From NCBI RefSeq assembly GCF_003790525.1, contig NZ_CP033635.1: DNA of 64,000 bases; one strand, given 5' to 3'. The DNA comes from Escherichia coli (lineage in GTDB: Bacteria; Pseudomonadota; Gammaproteobacteria; Enterobacterales; Enterobacteriaceae). Under the pieces are notes generated by a model. The model was not told the DNA's origin. It saw nothing but the letters and a program-made list of their open reading frames with translations, and did not search any database. Shown here one piece after another: positions 4,061 through 55,719 of the stretch; the stretch's first letter is position 1, and every line of letters begins with the position of its first letter. The position numbers were made by a program, and so were the translations under genes.

Positions 4061-4495
4061 GTGAAAAGTACCAGCGATCTGTTCAATGAAATTATTCCAT
4101 TGGGTCGCTTAATCCATATGGTTAATCAGAAGAAAGATCGCCTGCTTAACGAGTATCTGTCTCCGCTGGATATTACCGCGGCACAGTTTAAGGTGCTCTG
4201 CTCTATCCGCTGCGCGGCGTGTATTACTCCGGTTGAACTGAAAAAGGTATTGTCGGTCGACCTGGGGGCGCTGACCCGTATGCTGGATCGCCTGGTCTGT
4301 AAAGGCTGGGTGGAAAGGTTGCCGAACCCGAATGACAAGCGCGGCGTACTGGTAAAACTTACCACCAGCGGCGCGGCAATATGTGAACAATGCCATCAAT
4401 TAGTTGGCCAGGACCTGCATCAAGAATTAACAAAAAACCTGACGGCGGACGAAGTGGCAACACTTGAGCATTTGCTTAAGAAAGTCCTGCCGTAA
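4061..4495 (+). CDS. marR: multiple antibiotic resistance repressor MarR (GTG start)
   Basis: 144 aa wHTH protein; recognised MarR sequence. Confidence 0.93.
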
Positions 4496-4515
4496 ACAAA
4501 AAAAGAGGTATGACG

Positions 4516-4899
4516 ATGTCCAGACGCAATACTGACGCTATTACCATTCATAGCATTTTGGACTGGATCGAGGACAACCTGGAATCGCCACTGTCACTGG
4601 AGAAAGTGTCAGAGCGTTCGGGTTACTCCAAATGGCACCTGCAACGGATGTTTAAAAAAGAAACCGGTCATTCATTAGGCCAATACATCCGCAGCCGTAA
4701 GATGACGGAAATCGCGCAAAAGCTGAAGGAAAGTAACGAGCCGATACTCTATCTGGCAGAACGATATGGCTTCGAGTCGCAACAAACTCTGACCCGAACC
4801 TTCAAAAATTACTTTGATGTTCCGCCACATAAATACCGGATGACCAATATGCAGGGCGAATCGCGCTTTTTACATCCATTAAATCATTACAACAGCTAG
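4516..4899 (+). CDS. marA: AraC/XylS-family activator MarA
   Basis: 127 aa from [24 protein letters not shown]; recognised MarA. Confidence 0.93.
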
Positions 4900-5205: not shown

Positions 5206-8346
<3,141 letters not shown>

Positions 8347-44365: not shown

Positions 44366-44391
44366 AATTAACTACACCATTAACTACACCG
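44366..44391 (+). repeat. left copy of 26-bp direct repeat AATTAACTACACCATTAACTACACCG (tandem 12-mer; candidate integrase arm-type sites)
   Basis: exact copy at 55567-55592; followed in both copies by a related ACAACGTG(G/A)AACAA motif. Confidence 0.6.
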
Positions 44392-45466
44392 TTCGGCGCA
44401 CTGTATGAAACAACGTGGAACAAATAGACACAAGCGGCAGGCTATACCGTTATCATTTTTCAGCTATCCGTCATGAAGCTGGTGGATGATCACGGATAAC
44501 CAGGCATCTACAGCGCCTTAAAAAGCTGAACCCGACAAACATTTCTGCTTATCGGGTCCGATCGCTCTTTCTACTCGTGGCAGATGAGTTTACTAGGAAG
44601 GGGGGAACATTGTATCAGGCTATCCCCTTTCTGTGCTGATTCGGCTGGTGAATGATCTACTTGGGGCACTACACTTTTCGGATAGTGCGGGTATCCGGTT
44701 TTCTGCCTCATCGAATTTTAAGCCTTCTGACGGCCTGTATATCATTTCCTGTGGAGTTGCCGCCCTGATAGCGAATACTGCGGCAGCATGTGATTTACCC
44801 CCCGTTCTGTTGATGTTTGATGTGGCTGGTTGATGTGCTGCCATGTTTTCCGCCAATGGTGGAAAAGCCCACCAGCGCAACGCAGGACGCATAAAACCAT
44901 TGCGATGACTCTGGACGCAAAACCACGTTTAACGATGTTTTGCACTGAACCAGAATACTGTTCGTTTTTGTCTCGATGTCCGTACGTATTACGTCCGCAC
45001 CTAATCCGGCATCATGCCCACCAGCGTAACGCATTTTTTTAATTTCGTGGCTGTGCGTCCACCAGCTACGCCGGAATGGGGTATTCCGTTTCAACGGAAC
45101 AGGTATGACGAACATAATCGCACCTTCTCCCGAAAACGGTGCGACCTGCATCATCGAAATGGTGATTCAGCTACTCGGCGATTTTCACCATTCAGAATCT
45201 GGCGGGTGAGTTATCCAGCTTCCACCAATGGGGGATTCTGGAACAATCAACGGGTTACGCCTTATCAGCAAAAAAGCACATCAACTGTAAAGGAAATCGT
45301 TATGGTTGCTGGTGGGCTGCGTCACCATCATGGTGATGATGCTGTCCAGTCAGCCGGAACGGTTGAACAGGGTGGCTATGGGTCACTCTGTTGTGCGTTA
45401 TTTGCGTGATCCTGGTACGGGGTGACTATCTTTCAGATAGTCGGTTGCCTGGTTACACGAAAAAAT

Positions 45467-45769
45467 TTACTTCCTGCGTTTATCCTGCTTTGTATGCCCG
45501 TGCTGAATGCCCCGCAGTGGATCTTCTTTTTTCAGGTCGATCCCCATGTCCGTTAGTGTTTTTGTGGCGGCGGTTCTTATGGCACAAATCAGGTCTCTTT
45601 CCGGTTCCCGGGTTATGGTTGCCTTCCGGATGCATGCCGTTCGTCGTTCCGTTACATACTGACGCGCTTCATCACTTGCCGCCTGTTTCAGTAACTCACC
45701 CCAGCGATTAGCCGCCCGTCGCCATAAACCTTTCGCTTCCAGTTCTTCCGCTTTGTCATCATGCACCAT
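45467..45769 (-). CDS. ANR-like small regulator, paralog 2 (start at MVHDD.. assumed)
   Basis: MVHDDKAEELEAKGLWRRAANRWGELL... parallels the protein at 49352-49624. Confidence 0.55.
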   Translation of the reverse strand: MVHDDKAEELEAKGLWRRAANRWGELLKQAASDEARQYVTERRTACIRKATITREPERDLICAIRTAATKTLTDMGIDLKKEDPLRGIQHGHTKQDKRRK

Positions 45770-45883
45770 AAGCATAATCCCATTGATACCTGTTAACTCT
45801 GAATGGTTGGTTTCTGTTCTTTTGATAATTTCCCGCATAGCTTATTGTATGACAGTACTGTCCCACAATAAGGAGTTGCACGC

Positions 45884-46174
45884 ATGAGAATGACTAGGCA
45901 CAAAAAACAGATTCTTGAACTCTACAAACCTGAGTATCGCGATTGGGTGCGGGTGGAGGCCGGAGATCCGCCTTTTGATGTTCGTGGTGTGACAGTGCTG
46001 CTCTATGGTTCCGAATATCGGCGATATCACATAGAGGCAACACGAAGGACGCTAAACGCTATGGTTCGTGATAAGTTGCTGGAGCGTGTGAAAGTCCGTG
46101 AGCCACGTTTTGATGTGCGTATTGGTGGCGATGGTGCGCATTGCACGGTAATCCGCTATGGCCTGGTAAGGTAA
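45884..46174 (+). CDS. hypothetical protein (96 aa), divergent from the ANR-like gene
   Basis: ORF with upstream AGGAG-like RBS; no recognisable family. Confidence 0.4.
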   Translation: MRMTRHKKQILELYKPEYRDWVRVEAGDPPFDVRGVTVLLYGSEYRRYHIEATRRTLNAMVRDKLLERVKVREPRFDVRIGGDGAHCTVIRYGLVR

Positions 46175-46276: not shown

Positions 46277-46558
46277 TTACCGCCGCAACCGTTCCGGCTT
46301 CTTCCACTGATAAGTGTTTTTCGCGCTCTCCTGATACATCGCCACGCGTCGACGGTATGCCAGCAACTCTAGTACTCTGATTCGTATGTCGCGCATATCC
46401 ACGCCGTTAAGCTCAATACCATCACGGCGCATTACATCAGCAACAACACGCACATAATTTTCGGCGGTCACGCTGTCCGGCTGCGTGGCCTGTTCGTCAT
46501 GCTGCTGGCTGATTCCGGTAACGCGGCGGATTAATCCCAGTAGTTCGACTTCTGTCAT
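46277..46558 (-). CDS. hypothetical protein (93 aa) adjacent to cos copy A; start taken at internal Met
   Basis: MTEVELLGLIRRVTGI...; the longer ORF 46277..46756 would read through the cos site and is judged an artefact. Confidence 0.4.
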   Translation of the reverse strand: MTEVELLGLIRRVTGISQQHDEQATQPDSVTAENYVRVVADVMRRDGIELNGVDMRDIRIRVLELLAYRRRVAMYQESAKNTYQWKKPERLRR

Positions 46559-46837: not shown

Positions 46838-47272
46838 TTACTGTTCTGTATCGGCTGATTGCTCCATGCTGGCACGGCGAACGCTTACGGCATGACGCCA
46901 CCCAGCCAGAAAGCCAGCCATTTTATTTCGTGCCTTGCTCACATCTTCCGGTGAATAGCCGTAAATATGCAAACCTTCATCAAATCGATGTTCTGTTTCT
47001 TCACTGGAGTACTCGTCACGCTCAGATGAAAGCAGCCTCGCAAACATAATTTTTTCCAGCGCACTGGTTTCTACGTGATATCCGATGGTCTGAAGATGGC
47101 TTTTACCTGAATACCAAAGCAATGTATGCCCGATGTGATAACCGCCAGACTTTCCGCGATCCGCATTAAGATACGGCATCCCCTGTTTGGTCCATGCGCG
47201 AATAGTGGTTCTGTTAACCTTGAAATGTTCAGCTATTTCCTGCTGACTTACAAAACAAGCTTTATCAATCAT
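46838..47272 (-). CDS. Nu1-like small terminase-type DNA-binding protein (wHTH N-terminus, divergent C-terminus); possibly a packaging-redirection factor
   Basis: VSQQEIAEHFKVNRTTIRAWTKQGMPYL aligns with lambda Nu1 VNKKQLADIFGASIRTIQNWQEQGMPVL; 144 aa versus 181 aa for Nu1. Confidence 0.65.
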   Translation of the reverse strand: MIDKACFVSQQEIAEHFKVNRTTIRAWTKQGMPYLNADRGKSGGYHIGHTLLWYSGKSHLQTIGYHVETSALEKIMFARLLSSERDEYSSEETEHRFDEGLHIYGYSPEDVSKARNKMAGFLAGWRHAVSVRRASMEQSADTEQ

Positions 47273-47334
47273 AATGTTACCTTAACTGCATGGTTAAATA
47301 TCAATCAAGTGGTGGTGGTGTCACCTTCACGGAA

Positions 47335-47405
47335 AAACGTCATAAATAGCGAAAACGTGCGAGGTCGACGCCCCGTAACGGGTCCACATGCCGGAAAGGA
47401 CCCGC
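47335..47405 (-). other. lambda-like cos site copy B, inverted relative to copy A; cosN-like 12-mer (reverse complement) at 47362-47373
   Basis: reverse complement reads GGGTCCTTTCCGGCATGTGGACCCGTTACG GGGCGTCGACCT CGCACGTTTTCGCTATTTATGA; lies about 70 bp upstream of the terS-like start in the lambda cosN-to-Nu1 orientation. Confidence 0.7.
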
Positions 47406-47428
47406 AAAAAAAGCCGGATTTCTCCGGC
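47406..47428 (-). terminator. intrinsic terminator after the capsid/decoration genes
   Basis: minus strand GCCGGAGAAATCCGGC followed by U7. Confidence 0.65.
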
Positions 47429-47502
47429 CTTGTCTCAGATGGTTTTCAGTATGCGATAGATGTCGCCGTCATCGCCCTGGTTTGTGCCATCGTTCCCCCT
47501 GC

Positions 47503-47838
47503 TTATCGGGCCAGCGGCTGAACGGATACGCCGGAACCCGCAAAGGCGGCGCATTTTTTCGCATCGGTGTCGACGCTCTCAGGCCAGTTAACGGCGGCAA
47601 TATTGAATATCCCCGTCTTGTAACACTGTGCTGATTTCTGCTTTGACGTGTCCACAGGGTACGAGGTCAGATAAACAGCCTTGCCAGATTCCTTACCATC
47701 CCACGCCTTAAACTCGCCATTGTCTGCCAGCATCAGCGGGGTAAATTCCTGAATAACGCCAGCATCAGCGGCAAAATGTACCAGCGTCGTGGATACCTGT
47801 TGGCTGCCTGAAAATAACTCAATGTATGGAGCGTCCAT
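47503..47838 (-). CDS. lambda gpD-like head decoration protein
   Basis: TPLMLADNGEFKAWDG and AFAGSGVSV match lambda gpD TPLMLDTSSRKLVAWDG and AFAGTAISIV; 111 aa. Confidence 0.8.
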   Translation of the reverse strand: MDAPYIELFSGSQQVSTTLVHFAADAGVIQEFTPLMLADNGEFKAWDGKESGKAVYLTSYPVDTSKQKSAQCYKTGIFNIAAVNWPESVDTDAKKCAAFAGSGVSVQPLAR

Positions 47839-47849
47839 AGAATCCCCCG

Positions 47850-48905
47850 TTAAGCAATTTTGACGGTAACAAATTTGCGAATATCTGCCGGTACAGGCTG
47901 CGGTGCGCTGTGCGTCTGCACGTACTCAATCGCCGGATCGCCGTCCTCAATCCAGTTTTTCGGGTAGTACATGTTTTGCGTTGCGCCCGTTCTTACCGCT
48001 TCCTGATCCATAATCGCACCATATGCCACCAGCCCTTTATTGTTGGTGTTACCCAGGACCAGCAAATCAGGCTCAAGGAAATATTTTTCGGTCCCGTCGC
48101 TGTCAGTGTATTTGCCGGAATAGACGATAAGGGCCAGATCACCAAGATAGCCTTTAAAGCTCACCACTTCGCCCAGGTTTTTACAGGCCAGCTCGGCGGC
48201 GGATTCTGATCCACGGGAAAGATCGTACAGTTCACGGAATTTTTTAAAGCTGCGTAATGTGCGCCATACCTCACCGCCCATAATCATGACGTTGGCGGGG
48301 CAACCTGCCTGATCAGCATAAAGCTCGATGTCATAGATTGGGTCGTGCATGTCTTTATCCTGCTGGGACCATTTTTTACCACTGGCCTGCTGTATGATGC
48401 AGTTTTCCGGTATTTTCCAGTCGATTTCATAGCGTTCTATGCCTTCGCCCTCAATGATGTTTTTTCCGGTCGTTACCGCATTCACCGCCAGCCATTCCAC
48501 GCGCGCCTTAATGGCGTTTATCTGGCGGCGCATGTTGCCAGTAATCAGGCGCATACGGCGGTAAGTTGGATCGTTAAGCTGTGCCGGATCTTCTCCATCC
48601 ATGCGCATGATGGTCTTTGTTGGATCGATTTCGTGCTTTGGCTTCATGTAGCCTGGTTTAATCGTGCTGGTTTCGTACCCTTTATCGCGCTGGACCTGAC
48701 TACCCACCATAGGAGAACAGAACGCTGACATCGTAACCTCTTCAATGTCCAGGGTGTCCAGCATGATGTTTTGGGTGTTGAAGGTCGCCACGTTCGGGAA
48801 AAACAGCGTGGTAAACAGCGGACTAAATTTATATTCCGAAATATCCCCGCGATTCAGGTACGCGAAAAGCTGGTTAGTTGTAAGTGCCTTTGCTTTGCCT
48901 GTCAT
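47850..48905 (-). CDS. lambda gpE-like major capsid protein
   Basis: 351 aa; KPGYMKPKHEIDPTKT, DPTYRRMRLITGNMRR and YPKNWIEDGDPA...SAP...FVTVKIA align with lambda gpE along the whole length. Confidence 0.85.
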   Translation of the reverse strand: MTGKAKALTTNQLFAYLNRGDISEYKFSPLFTTLFFPNVATFNTQNIMLDTLDIEEVTMSAFCSPMVGSQVQRDKGYETSTIKPGYMKPKHEIDPTKTIMRMDGEDPAQLNDPTYRRMRLITGNMRRQINAIKARVEWLAVNAVTTGKNIIEGEGIERYEIDWKIPENCIIQQASGKKWSQQDKDMHDPIYDIELYADQAGCPANVMIMGGEVWRTLRSFKKFRELYDLSRGSESAAELACKNLGEVVSFKGYLGDLALIVYSGKYTDSDGTEKYFLEPDLLVLGNTNNKGLVAYGAIMDQEAVRTGATQNMYYPKNWIEDGDPAIEYVQTHSAPQPVPADIRKFVTVKIA

Positions 48906-49111
48906 TATTCACCTCCGTGAACCTGATTGATACCCAGCGCCGCACGCAAATAGGTGCGCACCTGCCAGCCTGTTGACGGCTCAACCATCGCCAGCGGATC
49001 AAGTCCTGCCGCAATGCCTGCTTTTACATTCTGCTGGTGGCGTTCCTTGAGCGCCTCCACGATGTCGGGGCTTATGTAGACCGTCACCCCGCCTTTTTTC
49101 TCTTCTGCCAT
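48905..49111 (-). CDS. hypothetical 68-aa protein translationally coupled (TAATG) to the capsid gene
   Basis: stop overlaps the gpE-like ATG; first gene of the capsid operon. Confidence 0.5.
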   Translation of the reverse strand: MAEEKKGGVTVYISPDIVEALKERHQQNVKAGIAAGLDPLAMVEPSTGWQVRTYLRAALGINQVHGGE

Positions 49112-49145
49112 AGTCAGAAATTCCTCTTTGACTTAAAAAATCATA

Positions 49146-49163
49146 ACTGGATGTTCATCCAGT
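49146..49163. promoter_or_regulatory. perfect palindrome ACTGGATG-TT-CATCCAGT upstream of the capsid operon (candidate operator/activator site)
   Basis: 8-bp arms with 2-bp spacer, about 35 bp upstream of the first operon ATG (49111). Confidence 0.4.
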
Positions 49164-49322
49164 CCTGATTATAATCATGATTGCATTTTGCGCAACAATA
49201 TTGAGTTACGTTGCAAATTATGAAATGATTATCCCGATCATGTGTGTCAGTTCACCATAAAAAACCTCGTATACAAAAGCCCCATAAGCCCCCTGTGACC
49301 TTATCGGGCTTTTTTTAGGCGT

Positions 49323-49344
49323 AAAAAAGCCGGATTGCTCCGGC
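49323..49344 (-). terminator. intrinsic terminator after the ANR-like gene (same stem family as 47406-47428)
   Basis: minus strand GCCGGAGCAATCCGGC followed by U6. Confidence 0.6.
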
Positions 49345-49351
49345 TGTGTGC

Positions 49352-49624
49352 TCACTTCTGCGGGTAGTTGCGCCATATTGCTTTGCCAATACCAGCTATC
49401 CCCATTTGTTTTTCAGTGCGATTAACTGACCTTTTCAGAGCGCCTAAATCATCCGGCGGCTCCGGTGGCCTCTGTGCCTTACGGATACATTCCGCGCGAC
49501 GCATTGCCACCTGTTCGCGCTCCTTGTCTGTCTCCACCAGCCTCATAACTTCACCCCATCGCGCCGCCGCCCTCCGGTAAAAGCCTTTTGCCTCGAGTTC
49601 CTCCGCTATGCGGTCATGTACCAT
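49352..49624 (-). CDS. ANR-like small regulator, paralog 1 (start at MVHDR.. assumed)
   Basis: MVHDRIAEELEAKGFYRRAAARWGEVM...; longer ORF start would overlap ssb. Confidence 0.55.
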   Translation of the reverse strand: MVHDRIAEELEAKGFYRRAAARWGEVMRLVETDKEREQVAMRRAECIRKAQRPPEPPDDLGALKRSVNRTEKQMGIAGIGKAIWRNYPQK

Positions 49625-49634
49625 CGTCACCCCC

Positions 49635-50045
49635 TCAGAACGGAATATCATCACCGTAAGGGTCATCGCCTCCCGCTGGTGGCTGATTACCCTGTGTGCC
49701 TGTGGTTTTGCGTCTGTTCCCGCCAGGACGTGCCGCACGGGCACTGATTACGCTGTCTGCAATAACCTGCCAGCCCTGCCGCGTTTCCCCGTTCTGTCCG
49801 GTCCACTGGCTGACCTGCATCGTGCCGGATACGCTGGCAACGTCGCCTTTTTGATGTTTAGCCAGAAAGTCGGCCTGTTTGCCAAATGCGATGACCGATA
49901 ACCATAACGTCGCCTGTCCGTCCTGTGCCTGGCCGCATGGTAAAGATACCGCCATACGCGCCAGCGTCATCGGTGTACCCTTACTGGTCTGTTTTACCTG
50001 CGGGTCGTCCACCAGCCGCCCGTAAGCTGCTATCTGTGCTGTCAT
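49635..50045 (-). CDS. single-stranded DNA-binding protein (SSB-like OB fold with acidic DDIPF tail)
   Basis: 136 aa; C-terminal ...DPYGDDIPF typical of SSB; Gly/Pro-rich linker. Confidence 0.75.
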   Translation of the reverse strand: MTAQIAAYGRLVDDPQVKQTSKGTPMTLARMAVSLPCGQAQDGQATLWLSVIAFGKQADFLAKHQKGDVASVSGTMQVSQWTGQNGETRQGWQVIADSVISARAARPGGNRRKTTGTQGNQPPAGGDDPYGDDIPF

Positions 50046-50284
50046 GCTGTCTGCTCTCCGGTTTTAACGTTGATGGTTGTTACCTGTTCTGCTTCGGCAA
50101 TATCCCGCTCTGTCAGCGTGGCAAAGTTTGCCGCCGTCGTTGTCATGAATGCGCTTATCAGTTCGGGATGTGCTTTCGCGTATCCTTCCCCTGTGTTGCG
50201 GTCGATGATTTTTATCGCCACCCTCAGCCAGTGCTCTGTAAGGTCAATGGCGCGGTGATCTGTCTTTTTGTGGCTTACCTTCAT
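50042..50284 (-). CDS. hypothetical protein (80 aa)
   Basis: ORF overlapping the ssb start (coupled); no recognisable family. Confidence 0.45.
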   Translation of the reverse strand: MKVSHKKTDHRAIDLTEHWLRVAIKIIDRNTGEGYAKAHPELISAFMTTTAANFATLTERDIAEAEQVTTINVKTGEQTA

Positions 50285-50611: not shown

Positions 50612-50659
50612 AAATTTACCTTCGGTATTTTGTCCTGCTGTTCGATTTTTATTCATTGC

Positions 50660-50870
50660 TCACCATCTCTCACTTTTACTACTCACTTTTTAAAGCGTCT
50701 CGCTTCGTCTCACTTGAGATTTTTGTGTTTTGTATGTGCATGTTTCATAAGTGTTTTTTCACTGCTCACTTTTGAGCATGTATACAGGTGAGAAAGTGAG
50801 TAATTGTGTTAATATTTTGTAAAAACCTCACCATTACTCACTTTTACTACTCACTTTTTACAGTGGTCCT
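50660..50870. repeat. iteron array (CTCACTT heptamers, two 24-bp direct repeats) - candidate replication origin of the element
   Basis: at least 6 direct and 2 inverted CTCACTT copies between 50669 and 50856; CTCACTTTTACTACTCACTTTTTA at 50669 and 50839; directly 3' of the primase-helicase gene. Confidence 0.6.
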
Positions 50871-52264
50871 ACATCATCACCATCAATGTAAATCACGGCG
50901 TCTTTTTCCAGTTTGGCTAACCATCGCCGCATATTTTTCACGTCATACCCAAGCCGTTTCATGTCATCACGTAACAGCGGGATCGTGCACTTGTCGCCGT
51001 TCTGTGTGCGTGAACGGATGCACCCCCATAGCGCGGTATGGTTTTCCGTCTTGTTGCCTGCCTCCTCGATGCGCTCCAGTTCAGCAGGGGCGCGGGGAAC
51101 GTCAATCACCACCATGGACACAATTTCTTCGCCATCTGTATCGGTGAACACCTCCACGCTTTTAAGGTCGTATGCACTCTCTTTTGGCTCCTCTGCGTCC
51201 TTCATCTTCGTACACGCCGCAACCAGTGCTGTAACGTCTGAATTTTCCCTGCTGATTCGGTACTCTGCATCAAGCGCGGCACGGAATGCACTGGAACCAC
51301 GCGCCCCCTTTGTTTCATCCTTGCCGGAATGGTGAACCACCAGCACCGTGGCCCCTGTGGCCTGCTTTATCGCGTCACACCCCTGGATAAATGCGCCCAT
51401 ATCACGGGAATCATTTTCATCATTCCCACCAAAGCAACGGGCCAGCGTGTCGATCACAATCAGCCGCACATTTTCGCCCGTTCTGCTCTTAACAAGTCCG
51501 GCAGTCCTGATAACCTGCTCCACATAGTCAGGCGATGCAGGGAAAACAGGCGCGTTAATGATGCACAAATCTGTAACCACCTTGTCGTGGGTTATCTCCC
51601 ACGCCTTAACGCGGCGTTTTACGCCCATGCTGCCTTCACCAGCGATATAGATAACCGCACCCTTACTTACCCTGCGGCCTCCCCATGCCATACCTGTGGC
51701 AACATGGCACGACCAGGAAATGGCGAGGAACGATTTATAAGAACCGCTGGCCCCGTAGGTGCTGCATAATGACTCAGCCGGAATAAGCCCCTTAATGACG
51801 TAGCTTTGCTGCGCATCGAATCCCTCAGAACCCCATGAGATGGGAAGTGTGATTTTTCGCTTTCCGCCATTCATGACCAGGCTTTCCCCTCTCTCCCATG
51901 TTTCCCGTAGTCGTGGTAGCTGGTCGCTCCAGTCCTCCAGCAGTTCGAAATTTTCAGAAAGTAGCCGCGCCTCCTGGACTCCGGCGATCGCCAGTTTTGT
52001 GGCAATGGTCAGCATCTGCATATCGTCCAGGTTTCCGGCGCGTATGACCTTTACCCTGTATCGTCCTTCATCAACAATCTGTAAGTTGTCCAGTTCGCTT
52101 AACTGATAACGGCCCAGATAAACCGGAGGGATGGGATCGCCTGCTTTTTTGGCCTGTGCAATCATGTAATGTTCTGCAAAGGAGTGAGCATTATCACCCG
52201 CAAAAATAACCGCCTCAGTGTGTTTATCTTTCGGTAACAGTTTTACGTTCGGTGCAAGTTTCAT
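50858..52264 (-). CDS. replication initiator: primase-associated N-domain + RecA-like/AAA helicase (pri-rep type)
   Basis: 468 aa; Walker A GASGSYKS, Walker B LIVIDTL, VLVVHHSGKD; C-terminal wH-like tail. Confidence 0.8.
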   Translation of the reverse strand: MKLAPNVKLLPKDKHTEAVIFAGDNAHSFAEHYMIAQAKKAGDPIPPVYLGRYQLSELDNLQIVDEGRYRVKVIRAGNLDDMQMLTIATKLAIAGVQEARLLSENFELLEDWSDQLPRLRETWERGESLVMNGGKRKITLPISWGSEGFDAQQSYVIKGLIPAESLCSTYGASGSYKSFLAISWSCHVATGMAWGGRRVSKGAVIYIAGEGSMGVKRRVKAWEITHDKVVTDLCIINAPVFPASPDYVEQVIRTAGLVKSRTGENVRLIVIDTLARCFGGNDENDSRDMGAFIQGCDAIKQATGATVLVVHHSGKDETKGARGSSAFRAALDAEYRISRENSDVTALVAACTKMKDAEEPKESAYDLKSVEVFTDTDGEEIVSMVVIDVPRAPAELERIEEAGNKTENHTALWGCIRSRTQNGDKCTIPLLRDDMKRLGYDVKNMRRWLAKLEKDAVIYIDGDDVGPL

Positions 52265-52548
52265 TTCTTACCCCCTGCGACCAGCATTTCACGGATTTTG
52301 CGGATATAACTTGCAGCACGTTTCTGATTAACGGCTTTACGATGGCCCACCAGCGTGAAATCACGCCGGAACTGATAAACAGGCATAACGCAGTCATATT
52401 CGTAGCCTTCACGGCGGTAAGTGATGCGACGTTCCTCCACGCCCTTAATCATTACCGTGCCGCCGTAGTTATCACGGAAAATATCGCCGGGACGGATTTC
52501 AGGACGAGCGGGGCCGCTGGCATTAACGCCAGAATTTTTATTTTTCAT
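52261..52548 (-). CDS. hypothetical protein (95 aa) translationally coupled to the replication gene
   Basis: stop overlaps the downstream start; basic protein. Confidence 0.45.
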   Translation of the reverse strand: MKNKNSGVNASGPARPEIRPGDIFRDNYGGTVMIKGVEERRITYRREGYEYDCVMPVYQFRRDFTLVGHRKAVNQKRAASYIRKIREMLVAGGKK

Positions 52549-52553
52549 GTTTT

Positions 52554-52781
52554 TTATTCTCCGGTGTGCTGTTCTTTATATCTGTCGTGAATTGCCATCA
52601 CTGTATTTAATTCATTAATAACAGCCGTTAATAGCGTACGCACGGCAGAAAACATCATTGAATCAGATTCATCGCCACTTTCCTGCACATCAATTAAATT
52701 AAGTAGTAATGCGTCCATTTCCTTTGCGCGGATTAATGCCTTTTCACAATGAAAAATAACACCAAAGGGTATTTTATTCAT
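52554..52781 (-). CDS. hypothetical protein (about 75 aa)
   Basis: ORF with internal Met start; first gene after the divergent operator region. Confidence 0.4.
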   Translation of the reverse strand: MNKIPFGVIFHCEKALIRAKEMDALLLNLIDVQESGDESDSMMFSAVRTLLTAVINELNTVMAIHDRYKEQHTGE

Positions 52782-53056
52782 GACTCCCCTCCTGACGGAT
52801 ACGGGCGGCGAATACAGCGACACAACCGGACGGGCAACGGTTACGCGCTTCGCGTTCCGTCCAGGCGGTCACGTGGATAATTTGAGATTCTCCGGCACTC
52901 AGTGCCAGAAAACGCCACACAAAGGCGGTTTGTGTGTGCGCTAGTCGTGGGGTATGCTGTGTTCCAGCCATAATCGTTACTCCTGTTAACGGTTTGGTTA
53001 GACGCCCTGCATGTGTTACAGCACTGCGGGGCGTTGTCTTTTTAACGGCTTTCGTG

Positions 53057-53104
53057 ATAGGGTGTACACCTATCAAGCAAAAACATAACGCTATAGGTGT
53101 ACAC
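53057..53104. promoter_or_regulatory. two TAGG(G)TGTACAC palindromic operator-like sites immediately upstream of the RHH gene
   Basis: ATAGGGTGTACACCTAT at 53057-53073 and ATAGGTGTACAC at 53093-53104, ending at the ATG. Confidence 0.6.
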
Positions 53105-53299
53105 ATGTCAACAGTTATTAAGCGAGATAAAAAACCAAAGGGAACAGGAAAAGCCCCCCCATTCCATATGCGAATAGCTCCAGAACTGAAAGAGCAGTTT
53201 GATAATGAGGCCAGCAATGATGGGGTAAGCCTAGCCAACTGGCTTAAAGAGTTGGGGCGCGCCGAACTAAAGCGACGCGGCATTGAACCTAAAGGCTGA
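53105..53299 (+). CDS. ribbon-helix-helix (CopG/Arc-like) DNA-binding protein, 64 aa
   Basis: beta-strand/helix pattern PFHMRIAPELKEQF...SLANWLKELGRAEL typical of RHH regulators/antitoxins. Confidence 0.6.
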   Translation: MSTVIKRDKKPKGTGKAPPFHMRIAPELKEQFDNEASNDGVSLANWLKELGRAELKRRGIEPKG

Positions 53300-53302
53300 T
53301 GT

Positions 53303-53428
53303 ATGACTGAAAAGCAGACCGATAACAAACTTTCTCTACCAGAGAATAAACCAGCAGGCTTCTTACCAAGAAAAATCCTTGATGAGATCAAACGCCGCCA
53401 GCGCCGCAAGGCCAAAGAGCAGGAATAG
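53303..53428 (+). CDS. small basic ORF (41 aa) immediately downstream of the RHH gene
   Basis: ATG 4 nt after the RHH stop; product MTEKQTDNKLSLPENKPAGFLPRKILDEIKRRQRRKAKEQE. Confidence 0.3.
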   Translation: MTEKQTDNKLSLPENKPAGFLPRKILDEIKRRQRRKAKEQE

Positions 53429-53752
53429 CCCACCAGCAAGCCAGCACACTGATCACATTGGCCACCGTGACAGGTGGCCTTTTCTTTGCCCGTTATCCGG
53501 CAATTGTGGCGCTTCGCCACACGGTTGATATAATTCCCCTGCTCAGATTCATTTTTTGCGCGGCAGGTAAATTGTTCAGAAAGGCGGCTCCTTATCGGGG
53601 CCGCTTTTTTTATGTCTGAAAAACCGCGATTTTGTTGTTTTTCAGTTTCACCAGGCCGAACGAAGCCCCGCCCATGTTCGGGCGTATATCCAGTCTTCAT
53701 GGTTAAATCTCTGTATTAGTGGATGGGTGGCGGCTGTGTGCCGCCAGTCTTT

Positions 53753-53941
53753 TTAGTGAACTGCCTCGCAGCTTTCCTTCCATGCCAGAACTTCGGATAA
53801 AGACCAGCCAACGGAACGACCGCCCAGCTTACGCCGTGATGGGAATTGTCCGGCCTTTTCCAGGCGGTAGCGGCATGAGCGGCTAAGGCCTGTTAGCTTT
53901 TCGCATTCTTTTTCACGTATAAAGCGATCAGTGCTTAACAC
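53753..53941 (-). CDS. alpA: AlpA/Vis-family phage regulatory protein (excisionase-like)
   Basis: 62 aa; ...IREKECEKLTGLSRSCRYRLEKAGQFPSRRKLGGRSVGW... typical AlpA fold signature. Confidence 0.8.
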   Translation of the reverse strand: MLSTDRFIREKECEKLTGLSRSCRYRLEKAGQFPSRRKLGGRSVGWSLSEVLAWKESCEAVH

Positions 53942-54315
53942 TATTGCCCCCTTTCGTTTCTTAAAGAGTTATTTCGTGTTCTATTGCGTTGGGATGTGTC
54001 TGATTGTGTCAGGGTGATTCAGAGTTGGCAAATGTTGGTGGCGGGTATTTTACAGAAACGGGGTGATTTTAATAAAAATCATTTTAATTCAGTATTATGC
54101 AAAGGCATAAAATCTCGTTTTATGCCTTTTTTCTCACTATTTAAAGCGTTATTCGCTAATGTATAAAAAACCAGTTGAGCATTAAAAATCAGCAACTTAT
54201 AAATCTGTATACTTTTTGACCTCTTGTTCGTGGTTGTTTCACGTTGTTGTGTATTGTTGCACGTTGTATCTGTGCACTTATCCAGTATGCGCATACTGAA
54301 AAAACACGAAAAAAA

Positions 54316-55566
54316 TTATTTTCTTCTGGCTACTGGTAGCGTGGTTACGTTTTCATGTGCTCCCGCCAGTATCTCCAACCGCTCCACCCACATATCCAGC
54401 GCATTGCGTTTCGCATCCAGATAACGGGAATGATTATAAACTCGCTGCATTCCTGGCATCTGGTGGCCTGTAAGCTGCTCCACGACGTGAGGATCCACGC
54501 CTAAATCGTTCAGCATCGTTGTAAAGGTGCGCCGGATGTCATGCAGTGACCATTGAGGGTGTTTTAGCCTCCTGTGCGCTAATCTGCCGTACTGCGATAC
54601 GCTGGCCTCCTGTTTCACTTCCCCCAGTAATAAGCCCGTGTGCCTGTTCTGCTCCACCAGCCGCGTGACGAACGGCAGGATCGCTTCCGGTATGGGCCGG
54701 AATATTGCGACCTTCGTTTTGCTGTGCTCCTTCGGAACGGTCCAGAGCATTTCCGTGAAATCCCACTCCCCGATCTCCGATAACCTCAGTTCTACCGTCC
54801 TGGCTCCGAAGACAATCAGGAGGCGGATTAGTGCGACGTAGTAAGGGGAAAATATTTTTTTGTCCAGTGCCTGCAATAATTCGCCCAGTTCTTTGGTGCT
54901 TAAGACACGTTCGCTTATATCCGGTTTTTTCCCAACGTCCGCCACGTTCAGATCGTCCAGAACGTTGCTGATTGCATAGCGCCGCCTCCGGCAAAACTTA
55001 AGCGCCTGTTTGCACGCCTGTAGCACGAATCCGGCAGTAACAGGCGTTCGCTTTGCCACCCGATCAAAACAGGCCAGCCAGTGCCGTAGCTCGCATTTAT
55101 CCAGCGGCATAGCACCAATGTGCTGTATTACGTGATTATTAAGTCGCCTTTTCAGGGCGATATAATCCACGCGGTTTTCCTTTACGTAAGACTCAAGCCA
55201 GTAGGTGAGCGCATCTCCAACCGTTACAGGCTTTAACGCTTCCTGCATGGTGTAATTCATCTCATGACGTGGATTTTTCCCCTCAGCCAGCCATGCGCGA
55301 CACTGGGCGGCTTTTTCCCTGGCTGATTTCAGGCTCAGATCAGGATAATTTCCCAGCTTAATACGTTCCGGTCGTGTCTCTCTTCCCGTTCCGGCCCTGT
55401 AAGTGAAATACCAGGTTAAAAGGCCGCTGGTTGAATGCCTGACGCTCAGATTTCCACCGTCATTAAGAAAGGCTGTTTTTTGGGCGGGTGTGCCGTTGAT
55501 TTTCCTTAGCTGTGTATCGCTCAGCTTGTTAAGTGCTCTGGTCATAATTTTGAATCCGGTCATCAC
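54316..55566 (-). CDS. int: tyrosine site-specific integrase (P4-type)
   Basis: 416 aa; C-terminal catalytic region with ...HDIRRTF... and ...LTGHQMPGMQRVYNH... (R..H..R..Y). Confidence 0.88.
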   Translation of the reverse strand: MMTGFKIMTRALNKLSDTQLRKINGTPAQKTAFLNDGGNLSVRHSTSGLLTWYFTYRAGTGRETRPERIKLGNYPDLSLKSAREKAAQCRAWLAEGKNPRHEMNYTMQEALKPVTVGDALTYWLESYVKENRVDYIALKRRLNNHVIQHIGAMPLDKCELRHWLACFDRVAKRTPVTAGFVLQACKQALKFCRRRRYAISNVLDDLNVADVGKKPDISERVLSTKELGELLQALDKKIFSPYYVALIRLLIVFGARTVELRLSEIGEWDFTEMLWTVPKEHSKTKVAIFRPIPEAILPFVTRLVEQNRHTGLLLGEVKQEASVSQYGRLAHRRLKHPQWSLHDIRRTFTTMLNDLGVDPHVVEQLTGHQMPGMQRVYNHSRYLDAKRNALDMWVERLEILAGAHENVTTLPVARRK

Positions 55567-55592
55567 AATTAACTACACCATTAACTACACCG
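55567..55592 (+). repeat. right copy of the 26-bp direct repeat AATTAACTACACCATTAACTACACCG
   Basis: exact copy of 44366-44391, directly upstream of the int start codon. Confidence 0.6.
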
Positions 55593-55719
55593 ATCGTTGC
55601 ACAAAGGGCTACAACGTGAAACAAGCTGGAACAAGAAAAATCACAAATTTGTTTATAATCAAAAACATAATGCACAACCTGAAACATTATGAAACGGCAA
55701 AAAACACTAATTGATAAAG

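Follow-up and report, generated by a model that had tools for sequence, protein, structure and literature searches.

Two PerC-family genes in separate slots of a PICI-type satellite of Escherichia coli

PerC, Pch and ANR proteins and their satellite carriers

In pathogenic E. coli, adhesion, motility and type III secretion are governed by regulators of the PerC/Pch family, and satellites that carry their genes between strains can rewire virulence regulation. PerC of EPEC pEAF and PchA, PchB and PchC (group 1) of EHEC are LEE1 activators and H-NS anti-silencers. Group 1 proteins activate LEE1, whereas groups 2 and 3 (PchD and PchE, respectively) had little effect on LEE. The sole mechanistic model available for the family comes from PchA, which relieves silencing of LEE1 by H-NS, StpA and Hha and is ineffective when these three are absent (PMC4764244); H-NS was not co-precipitated with PchA by Fukui et al.

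PchE is the product of ECs_1588 in Sp7 (O-island 51, CP-933C) of E. coli O157:H7. Its over-expression raised fliC and flhDC and repressed csgD and curli, and the gene shows a basal expression that falls upon SOS induction (PMC7369912, PMC6265319). RACE mapped the 5' end of its transcript to a site 10 nt ahead of ECs1586, at a distance of approximately 675-700 nt from pchE on its upstream side, indicating co-transcription as a polycistronic ECs1586-ssb-pchE RNA (PMC7369912). A further member of the family, EcCIMP1_025 of the PICI EcCIMP1 (ISME J 2025), silences LEE1; a weak similarity to ANR was noted in the same study, which proposed an ANR-like action (PMC11773190). ANR proteins are defined as being smaller than 10 kDa, with three helices across the whole protein and the signature residues A10, E14, A22, W26, A29, W43, R47 (and C51) (PMC4983702). 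Among the satellites, EcCICFT073 has genes for capsid and head decoration proteins and AlpA as its activator; its induction, replication and high-frequency transfer were shown with lambda and phi80 helpers, and in PICIs the origin is found 3' of the gene for the replication initiator (PMC6092414). None of the published work that we found on PchE or EcCIMP1_025 measured island transfer.

The presence of PerC genes in E. coli PICIs, that of PchE in OI-51 and the resemblance between PerC and ANR are thus already known. Here we describe an island with two such genes in a 64,000-nucleotide stretch of E. coli contig NZ_CP033635.1 (hereafter, the window). Both genes are labelled in existing annotation, and the observation that we followed up, made in an earlier note on the same DNA, was correct and largely ordinary. 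The additions made here are incremental: a recurrent arrangement of two slots, the status of one of the two genes as a separate lineage, with DNA of its region in roughly a fifth of complete E. coli genomes, and the finding that the PerC and ANR models overlap directly. We did not find any of these described in the literature.

The tqsA island and its two PerC proteins

The two genes lie within an insertion of approximately 11.2 kb that splits tqsA and is bounded by direct repeats at 44366-44391 and 55567-55592. Fragments of tqsA also flank the island in E. coli CM2 and 042 and in TUM1886, the island of 042 being a related one at the same site, and from capsid to ssb (47503-50045) the sequence matches that of E. 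coli PKF11 at 100.0% identity. The features of the island were as follows.

44366-44391, no strand: integrase-distal att repeat, AATTAACTACACCATTAACTACACCG, inside the split tqsA (repeat D1 with 55567-55635, first 26 nt identical)
44795-45115, minus strand: 106-aa hypothetical gene of the accessory region (CDS in CM2; no Pfam, PHROG or PADLOC match)
45206-45409, plus strand: 67-aa hypothetical gene of the accessory region (CDS in CM2; no PHROG or PADLOC match)
45467-45769, minus strand: PerC-2, 100 aa, in the accessory slot (PF06069, 81.8 bits; phrog_994; identical to WP_021558663.1)
45844-45869, no strand: 26-bp imperfect palindrome ATTGTATGACAGTACTGTCCCACAAT, candidate operator (read from the sequence)
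45884-46174, plus strand: 96-aa conserved hypothetical gene, divergent from PerC-2 (linked to it in 10 of 10 contexts)
46277-46558, minus strand: 93-aa phrog_1561 protein, conserved terminal gene (E 1.4e-54)
46838-47272, minus strand: 144-aa packaging-related protein, Nu1/TerS-like HTH at the N-terminus (terminase small subunit phrog_57, E 1.1e-8)
47503-47838, minus strand: head decoration protein, lambda gpD-like (PF02924, E 4e-17; annotated in CM2)
47850-48905, minus strand: major capsid protein (RefSeq annotation in CM2, 042 and TUM1886)
48905-49111, minus strand: 68-aa gene, first of the capsid operon (phrog_3255)
49328-49345, minus strand: intrinsic-terminator hairpin AGCCGGAGCAATCCGGCT followed by TTTTTT, 6 nt past the PerC-1 stop (terminator scan)
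49352-49624, minus strand: PerC-1, 90 aa, last cistron of the ssb operon (PF06069, 134.6 bits; 76% identity to Sakai PchE)
49635-50045, minus strand: single-stranded DNA-binding protein, ssb (annotation; PF00436 in relatives)
50042-50284, minus strand: 80-aa phrog_1231 gene upstream of ssb (in the position of Sakai ECs1586)
50659-50863, no strand: probable origin of replication beside the helicase gene, with a stretch of 36% GC between two 37-nt iterons (repeat family D2; GC dip)
50858-52264, minus strand: RepA-family helicase, the replication initiator (annotation; PF13481 AAA_25 in relatives)
52261-52548, minus strand: DUF4222 protein (PF13973, E 3.5e-25)
53753-53941, minus strand: AlpA-family regulator (PF05930, E 5e-18)
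54316-55566, minus strand: tyrosine integrase (open reading frame as listed; 409 aa in CM2 according to RefSeq)
55567-55592, no strand: att repeat adjoining the integrase (direct repeat)

The island has each of the features listed for Gram-negative PICIs (PMC6092414), namely an integrase with att sites, AlpA, a replication initiator with adjacent iterons, a size of about 10-15 kb and packaging genes, and it has no tail or lysis genes. It is a PICI-type satellite similar to EcCI042 and to the type with capsid and decoration genes known from EcCICFT073, with which it shares int, AlpA, initiator and iterons, ssb, capsid and decoration genes and a Nu1-like gene, a length of about 11 kb and att repeats. 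It differs from these types in an extra accessory region of approximately 1.8 kb with PerC-2, and from the islands of 042, TUM1886 and Nissle in being without a head-tail-connector-like gene of about 414 nt. In the accessory region the 96-aa (plus strand), PerC-2 (minus), 67-aa (plus) and 106-aa (minus) genes alternate in direction; all other genes of the island are on the minus strand. Sp7 has the same order of int, AlpA, DUF4222 (RgdR), primase/helicase and ssb genes, followed by perC and then by a packaging module; a small gene stands between its primase and ssb genes. The packaging module of Sp7 is of the HK97 type (capsid, protease, portal and terminase), the element adjoins phoQ and there is no PerC-2, whereas the capsid genes of the island studied here are lambda gpE/gpD-like and its site is tqsA.

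The coordinates of PerC-1 (10.5 kDa) and PerC-2 (11.6 kDa) coincide with those of two CDSs annotated by RefSeq as PerC family transcriptional regulators in the near-identical island of E. coli CM2. The earlier note had described the pair as paralogues in a single element that share a core and diverge afterwards, and pairwise alignment bore this out. BLASTP aligned the two proteins with 39 of 77 identities (51%, E 2e-23), and their Smith-Waterman score was 178, compared to 29.1 +/- 5.4 in 2000 shuffles (z 27.7). Identity was highest in residues 1-50 (30/50, 60%), which include MVHD..AEELEAKG..RRAA.RWGE, while the parts beyond residue 50 were, on their own, only marginally similar (z 3.1, a score reached by 1.2% of shuffles), so that a shared core with later divergence is an accurate description. 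The places given for the two genes were also correct: both are in one satellite together with ssb and the capsid operon, PerC-1 upstream of the capsid genes with its start 10 nt beyond the stop of ssb, PerC-2 in the integrase-distal arm. No third PerC homologue was found by tblastn in the 64 kb window.

Profile searches, which the same note had proposed for family assignment, placed both proteins in Pfam PerC (PF06069), with 134.6 bits over model positions 1-89 of 90 for PerC-1 and 81.8 bits over positions 1-82 of 90 for PerC-2 (gathering cut-off 22.6). Both also matched phrog_994 and several PHROGs labelled "transcriptional activator". As they fit the Pfam model end to end, their similarity is not one of low complexity. 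Both reading frames are intact and full length relative to that model. In an alignment of 16 family sequences including the pair, homology was full-length with 19 invariant columns, and the core D-x2-AE-x-LE-x2-G-x2-RRAA-x-RW ... RR-x2-C was invariant throughout.

The term "ANR-like" in the earlier note holds at the level of a superfamily and not as membership of ANR. NCBIfam ANR (NF033650) gave 16.6 and 19.0 bits for the pair against a cut-off of 32, and at 10.5 and 11.6 kDa both proteins are above the size limit of ANR. Like ANR proteins such as Aar of EAEC 042, they have a three-helix N-terminal core and most of the signature residues: the equivalents A7, E11, A19, W23, R42 and C46 are present in both, and the pattern A-x3-E-x7-A-x3-W ... 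R-x3-C is kept, with V or L at the equivalent of A29 and, at that of W43, Q in PerC-1 and Y in PerC-2. Unlike ANR, they extend beyond this core by about 40 residues at the C-terminus, and there is no AraC/XylS gene annotated within the island. The proteins of the window are, in short, an ANR-like core with a C-terminal extension of about 40 residues; by curated thresholds they are PerC.

The two models themselves overlap. Among 1.84 billion representative proteins, a PerC profile matched only 295 clusters at E <= 0.001, and these included short proteins of 64-82 aa, two of which pass the ANR cut-off (P0188, 33.8 bits; P0162, 32.3 bits). All six of the short intermediates that were checked pass the Pfam PerC threshold, at model positions 2-55. 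The overlap suggests care with annotation and with the functional expectation, activator or anti-activator, that a family name brings.

Two lineages in two optional slots

PerC-1 is the positional orthologue of O157:H7 PchE (group 3 Pch): PerC-1 and Sakai PchE, both of 90 aa, are 76% identical over 88 aa and occupy the same place right after ssb. The spacer of 10 nt between the ssb stop and the PerC-1 ATG holds GGGGGTGA. A GC-rich hairpin of 7 bp with a T-run begins 6 nt beyond the PerC-1 stop, and this terminator parts PerC-1 from the capsid operon, which has an upstream region of its own (240 bp, 43% GC). By analogy with pchE, PerC-1 would share a transcript with ssb, and the 80-aa phrog_1231 gene is, from its position, presumably the equivalent of ECs1586, which comes first in the transcript mapped for pchE. 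Orthologues of PerC-1 had dN/dS values of 0.23-0.53.

In the island of Nissle 1917 the ssb stop is followed, after 16 nt, by the very same terminator hairpin. Since this hairpin directly trails ssb in an island without PerC, PerC-1 is a gene-sized presence/absence cassette of about 290 bp between the ssb stop and the operon terminator. The slot is at the junction of the replication and packaging modules in islands with a lambda-type capsid, in HK97 capsid-forming islands and in those of the Rpp/Nu1 type.

PerC-2 has a basic C-terminal tail (HGHTKQDKRRK) and was 51% identical to PchE (78 aa), 37% to PchD and 40% to EcCIMP1_025. With identities of only 36-51% to the characterised Pch and PerC proteins compared, it falls outside these groups and is a lineage distinct from every Pch group compared (groups 2 and 3), which makes it a candidate regulator worth testing. 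The PchE group is recognized by high identity together with synteny, and PerC-2, with 51% identity, an integrase-distal slot and a putative divergent promoter, does not belong to it. Identity of 37% ruled it out as an orthologue of PchD (group 2), which is 36-37% identical to PerC-1 and PerC-2 alike, and identity of 40% ruled it out as the EcCIMP1_025 protein. EcCIMP1_025 is like PerC-2 in being a PICI-encoded PerC-family protein of the integrase-distal arm, but it belongs to a third lineage (51% to PerC-1, 40% to PerC-2), and its LEE1-silencing phenotype is not transferable to either protein of the window. EcCIMP1 also differs from the window island in having one PerC copy and no ssb-adjacent slot.

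The exact PerC-2 protein was indexed in 3367 collection blocks, and its look-up gave 10 non-redundant genomic contexts. In all 10 it comes last before the junction with the chromosome, and the genes ahead of it, with constant spacing, are the divergent 96-aa one and that of the phrog_1561 protein; the latter is also found where PerC-2 is absent (042, TUM1886, Sakai Sp7 and Nissle). Packaging modules of three kinds occur among the contexts, namely HK97 capsid-forming, lambda-type and Rpp/Nu1-type, the last with a DUF927 primase and DUF1441, and the islands are spread over five or more insertion sites. Of 5426 complete E. coli genomes, 1101 (about one in five) had DNA of the accessory region. 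Among 50,697 deposited phage genomes, tblastn gave two weak matches to PerC-2 only, at 37-44% identity. The dN of 0 across the 10 contexts is so by construction, because they were retrieved by exact protein match; constraint is informed only by two loci selected on DNA similarity (L004 and L005), in which all four differences in the PerC-2 CDS were synonymous.

The intergenic region between PerC-2 and the 96-aa gene is 114 bp (45770-45883) and holds the 26-bp palindrome, whose 12-bp core GACAGTACTGTC was present in 13 of 13 fetched loci that bear the cassette and absent from loci without it. PerC-2 appears to have its own candidate promoter region here, common to the 96-aa gene and centred on the palindrome, although a simple sigma-70 scan gave no convincing promoter for PerC-2. 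The 96-aa gene had a dN of 0.005 and a dS of 0.075. Its product had no family match in Pfam, PHROG or PADLOC, its AF2 model was unusable (pLDDT 45), and a DNA-binding, winged-helix nature is a guess from the order of its secondary structure elements.

The occupancy of the two slots varied among related islands. Both are filled in the window, in CM2, PKF11/PKF4 and STEC316, and in nine of the 10 distinct PerC-2 contexts; 042, TUM1886 and Sakai Sp7 have the ssb slot only, one locus (L012) the accessory slot only, and the island of Nissle 1917, which is of the same capsid type, has neither. The two-slot arrangement thus recurs in many genomes. The ssb-adjacent copies of all loci were 68-96% identical to PerC-1 and 42-51% to PerC-2. 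An identity of 51% between PerC-1 and PerC-2 implies that they split long before the island was assembled. The "duplicated regulator" of the earlier note is misleading: the two genes are paralogues, but they belong to two lineages in two optional slots, each filled or empty independently, and are not a recent duplication within the island.

Proposed action and rival explanations

The AF2 model of PerC-1 (pLDDT 83) has five helices, of which helices 4 and 5 are outside the ANR-like core. PerC-1 and PerC-2 are basic proteins of about 10-11.5 kDa, predicted to be all-helical, with a TPR-like three-helix N-terminal core in common with ANR and no HTH. A search of solved structures with the PerC profile gave nothing meaningful (the best hit was a designed coiled coil, E 2.8), and Foldseek found no match at E <= 0.001 in the PDB or among viral models. 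Given a TPR-like core and no HTH, PerC-1 and PerC-2 are most likely not classical operator-binding factors, and the published data on their homologues favour adaptor-type regulators.

Beyond the identity, synteny, slots and fold class described above, what we propose for targets, partners and regulation draws on analogy with these homologues. We consider the two genes to be old PerC/Pch paralogues in optional PICI slots whose products remodel complexes and have mainly host targets, a reading to which we would assign a probability of roughly 0.55. PerC-1 and PerC-2 would join or disrupt nucleoprotein or transcription-factor complexes, either through anti-silencing of H-NS, StpA and Hha, as in PchA, or by binding a partner regulator in the manner of ANR, and their differing C-terminal halves may confer different partner or locus specificity. 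Their main targets would be promoters of the host and of other horizontally acquired DNA (flagella, curli and LEE-type loci) rather than steps essential to the satellite's own cycle. The output of PerC-1 would be tied to the ssb operon and that of PerC-2 would be independent of it. The island itself is about 50% GC, and as it is not markedly AT-rich, its own silencing by H-NS is not predicted.

The earlier note had suggested instead that the two copies divide between helper sensing and the satellite's own late genes. We found no support for this split, and a life-cycle role in which PerC-1 switches on the capsid/packaging operon and PerC-2 senses or acts on the helper seems unlikely to us. AlpA is the published helper-responsive master activator, as demonstrated in EcCICFT073 (PMC6092414), and the nearest characterised homologues, PchE, EcCIMP1_025 and PchA, regulate host genes (PMC7369912, PMC6265319, PMC11773190, PMC4764244). 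It is true that the PerC-1 slot is always at the replication/packaging junction, in three island types, and this fixed position would fit a late-gene role as well; a terminator sets PerC-1 apart from the capsid operon, which has its own upstream region, and most islands with PerC-2 keep both copies. Yet the Nissle island has the same capsid operon and upstream region with no PerC at all (it may simply be defective), other islands carry one copy only, and expression of pchE needs no induction and declines, rather than rising, upon SOS induction. PerC-2, for its part, is at the place of accessory cargo in PICIs, with a divergent control region of its own.

A role as true ANR anti-activators, binding and inactivating a host AraC/XylS activator (and H-NS) and so damping virulence or acid-resistance regulons, is very doubtful. 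Bit scores of about half the curated cut-off, masses above 10 kDa, the extra C-terminal part of about 40 aa and an island without an AraC/XylS gene all count against it, and the closest characterised relatives, PchA and PchE, are activators or anti-silencers. What speaks for it is the ANR spacing of A7, E11, A19 and W23 up to the Trp, followed by R42 and C46, the weak ANR matches, the overlap of the models through short intermediates, and the repression of LEE1 by EcCIMP1_025, for which an ANR-like action was proposed (PMC11773190). A strict ANR role thus does not agree with the membership results, but the mode of action may be similar. The constant linkage of PerC-2 and the divergent 96-aa gene (10/10 contexts), the palindrome core kept in all 13 cassette-bearing loci and the purifying selection on both genes would agree with a small local switch formed by the two proteins across the 26-bp palindrome. 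This switch would control the accessory cassette, PerC-2 being a co- or anti-regulator of the 96-aa protein, a role to which its TPR-like/ANR-like fold, suited to protein-protein regulation, would lend itself. We rate this as quite improbable, as the 96-aa protein is without a family or a usable model, its DNA-binding nature is a guess, and the relative of its gene in EcCIMP1 does not adjoin the PerC gene there. The least credible explanation, to which we give hardly any weight, is that one copy is a redundant and decaying remnant of a duplication. Islands with one copy or none do exist, but both frames are intact and full length, the differences in PerC-2 at the DNA-selected loci are all synonymous, the PerC-1 orthologues have dN/dS values below one, and the 51% identity places the split before island assembly; pseudogenisation is essentially excluded.

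We also speculate, with low expectation, that the two slots form a functional pair, PerC-1 and PerC-2 hetero-oligomerising through the three-helix core or competing for nucleoid complexes, with PerC-2 possibly acting alongside the divergent 96-aa protein. In this reading PerC and ANR would be one superfamily of TPR-like mini-regulators, with PICIs as a main vehicle for them in E. coli. If this speculation is correct, the satellite would tune host motility, adhesion and virulence differently when quiescent and when induced.

Several other features of the island were recorded. Rfam models gave no match over the island at a permissive E-value threshold, and PADLOC defence models gave none for both PerC proteins and four neighbours, a weak mads_1 match being seen for the Nu1-like protein only. 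In this 144-aa protein the Phage_Nu1 and HTH matches were sub-threshold. A second copy of the AGCCGGAGCAATCCGGCT terminator is present at 47407-47433, after the decoration gene. The remaining contents are an Icd-like and other small genes near AlpA and two small genes between the iterons and ssb. Finally, the slot of the DUF4222 gene, directly upstream of the replication initiator, is that of RgdR (ECs1581) before the primase in Sakai Sp7, and RgdR is a T3S regulator of OI-51 (PMC3378721).

Termination of the ssb and capsid operons

A terminator hairpin, AAAAAAGCCGGATT[G/T]CTCCGGC, was found in two copies, one 3' of PerC-1, the PerC gene that follows ssb (window 49323-49349), and the other 3' of the decoration gene (window 47407-47433). 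The predicted hairpins close one operon each, that of ssb and that of the capsid genes. The PICI of E. coli Nissle 1917 (L018, NZ_CP171242 1695533-1706222) carries the same capsid/decoration module as the window, and a PerC gene was absent from the whole of this island. Its ssb gene was followed directly by the terminator that lies 3' of PerC-1 in the window.

Assignment of the small regulators

Six short proteins of 64-82 aa retrieved by the PerC profile search (P0188, P0162, P0150, P0196, P0204, and P0165) all scored above the Pfam PerC gathering score, with the match limited to the N-terminal 55 positions, and two of the six also passed the NCBIfam ANR cut-off. As judged by these profile scores, the curated families PerC and ANR overlap, and the annotation of a protein can therefore flip between "activator" and "negative regulator". 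Upstream of the helicase, a DUF4222 gene (window 52261-52548) matches in position RgdR (ECs1581) of O157, which is published as controlling type III secretion and motility there (PMC3378721). On this positional match, the small "virulence regulator" genes of the island would number three: an RgdR-like gene and the two PerC genes.

The intergenic palindrome and the 96-aa gene family

Centred in the intergenic region between PerC-2, in the accessory slot, and the divergent 96-aa gene is a 26-bp imperfect palindrome, ATTGT-nn-GACAGTACTGTC-nn-ACAAT (window 45844-45869), whose core was kept in all the cassette-bearing loci fetched. It is likely an operator for a dimeric binder. EcCIMP1, the island of E. 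coli MP1, has DNA 74% identical to the 5' part of the 96-aa gene and the sequence upstream of it (L017 8920-9279). The exact 12-bp palindrome core was not present in this relative, which lies ~1.1 kb away from the EcCIMP1 PerC gene. The association of the 96-aa gene family with PerC may reach beyond the exact cassette.

Probable replication origin and differences among islands

Two 37-nt direct repeats, 92% identical (window 50659-50695 and 50827-50863), flank a stretch of 36% GC that directly adjoins the RepA-helicase gene; together these are probably an iteron-type replication origin of the island. In the 042, TUM1886, and Nissle islands the decoration gene and the Nu1-like gene are separated by a gene of ~414 nt, annotated in TUM1886 as a head-tail connector:

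L002 (a related island), 4419-4832: ~414-nt gene
L018 (Nissle 1917), 7575-7988: ~414-nt gene

This gene was missing from the window island (interval 47273-47502) and from the CM2 island (L001), and the packaging competence of the window island may differ from that of islands with the gene. The CM2 island was also ~296 bp longer than that of the window, at some point between the helicase and integrase genes (window 52264-54316). Small genes annotated on the plus strand (YlcI/HicB-like) overlap a long minus-strand ORF of 308 aa (52774-53700), which is probably not a true gene.
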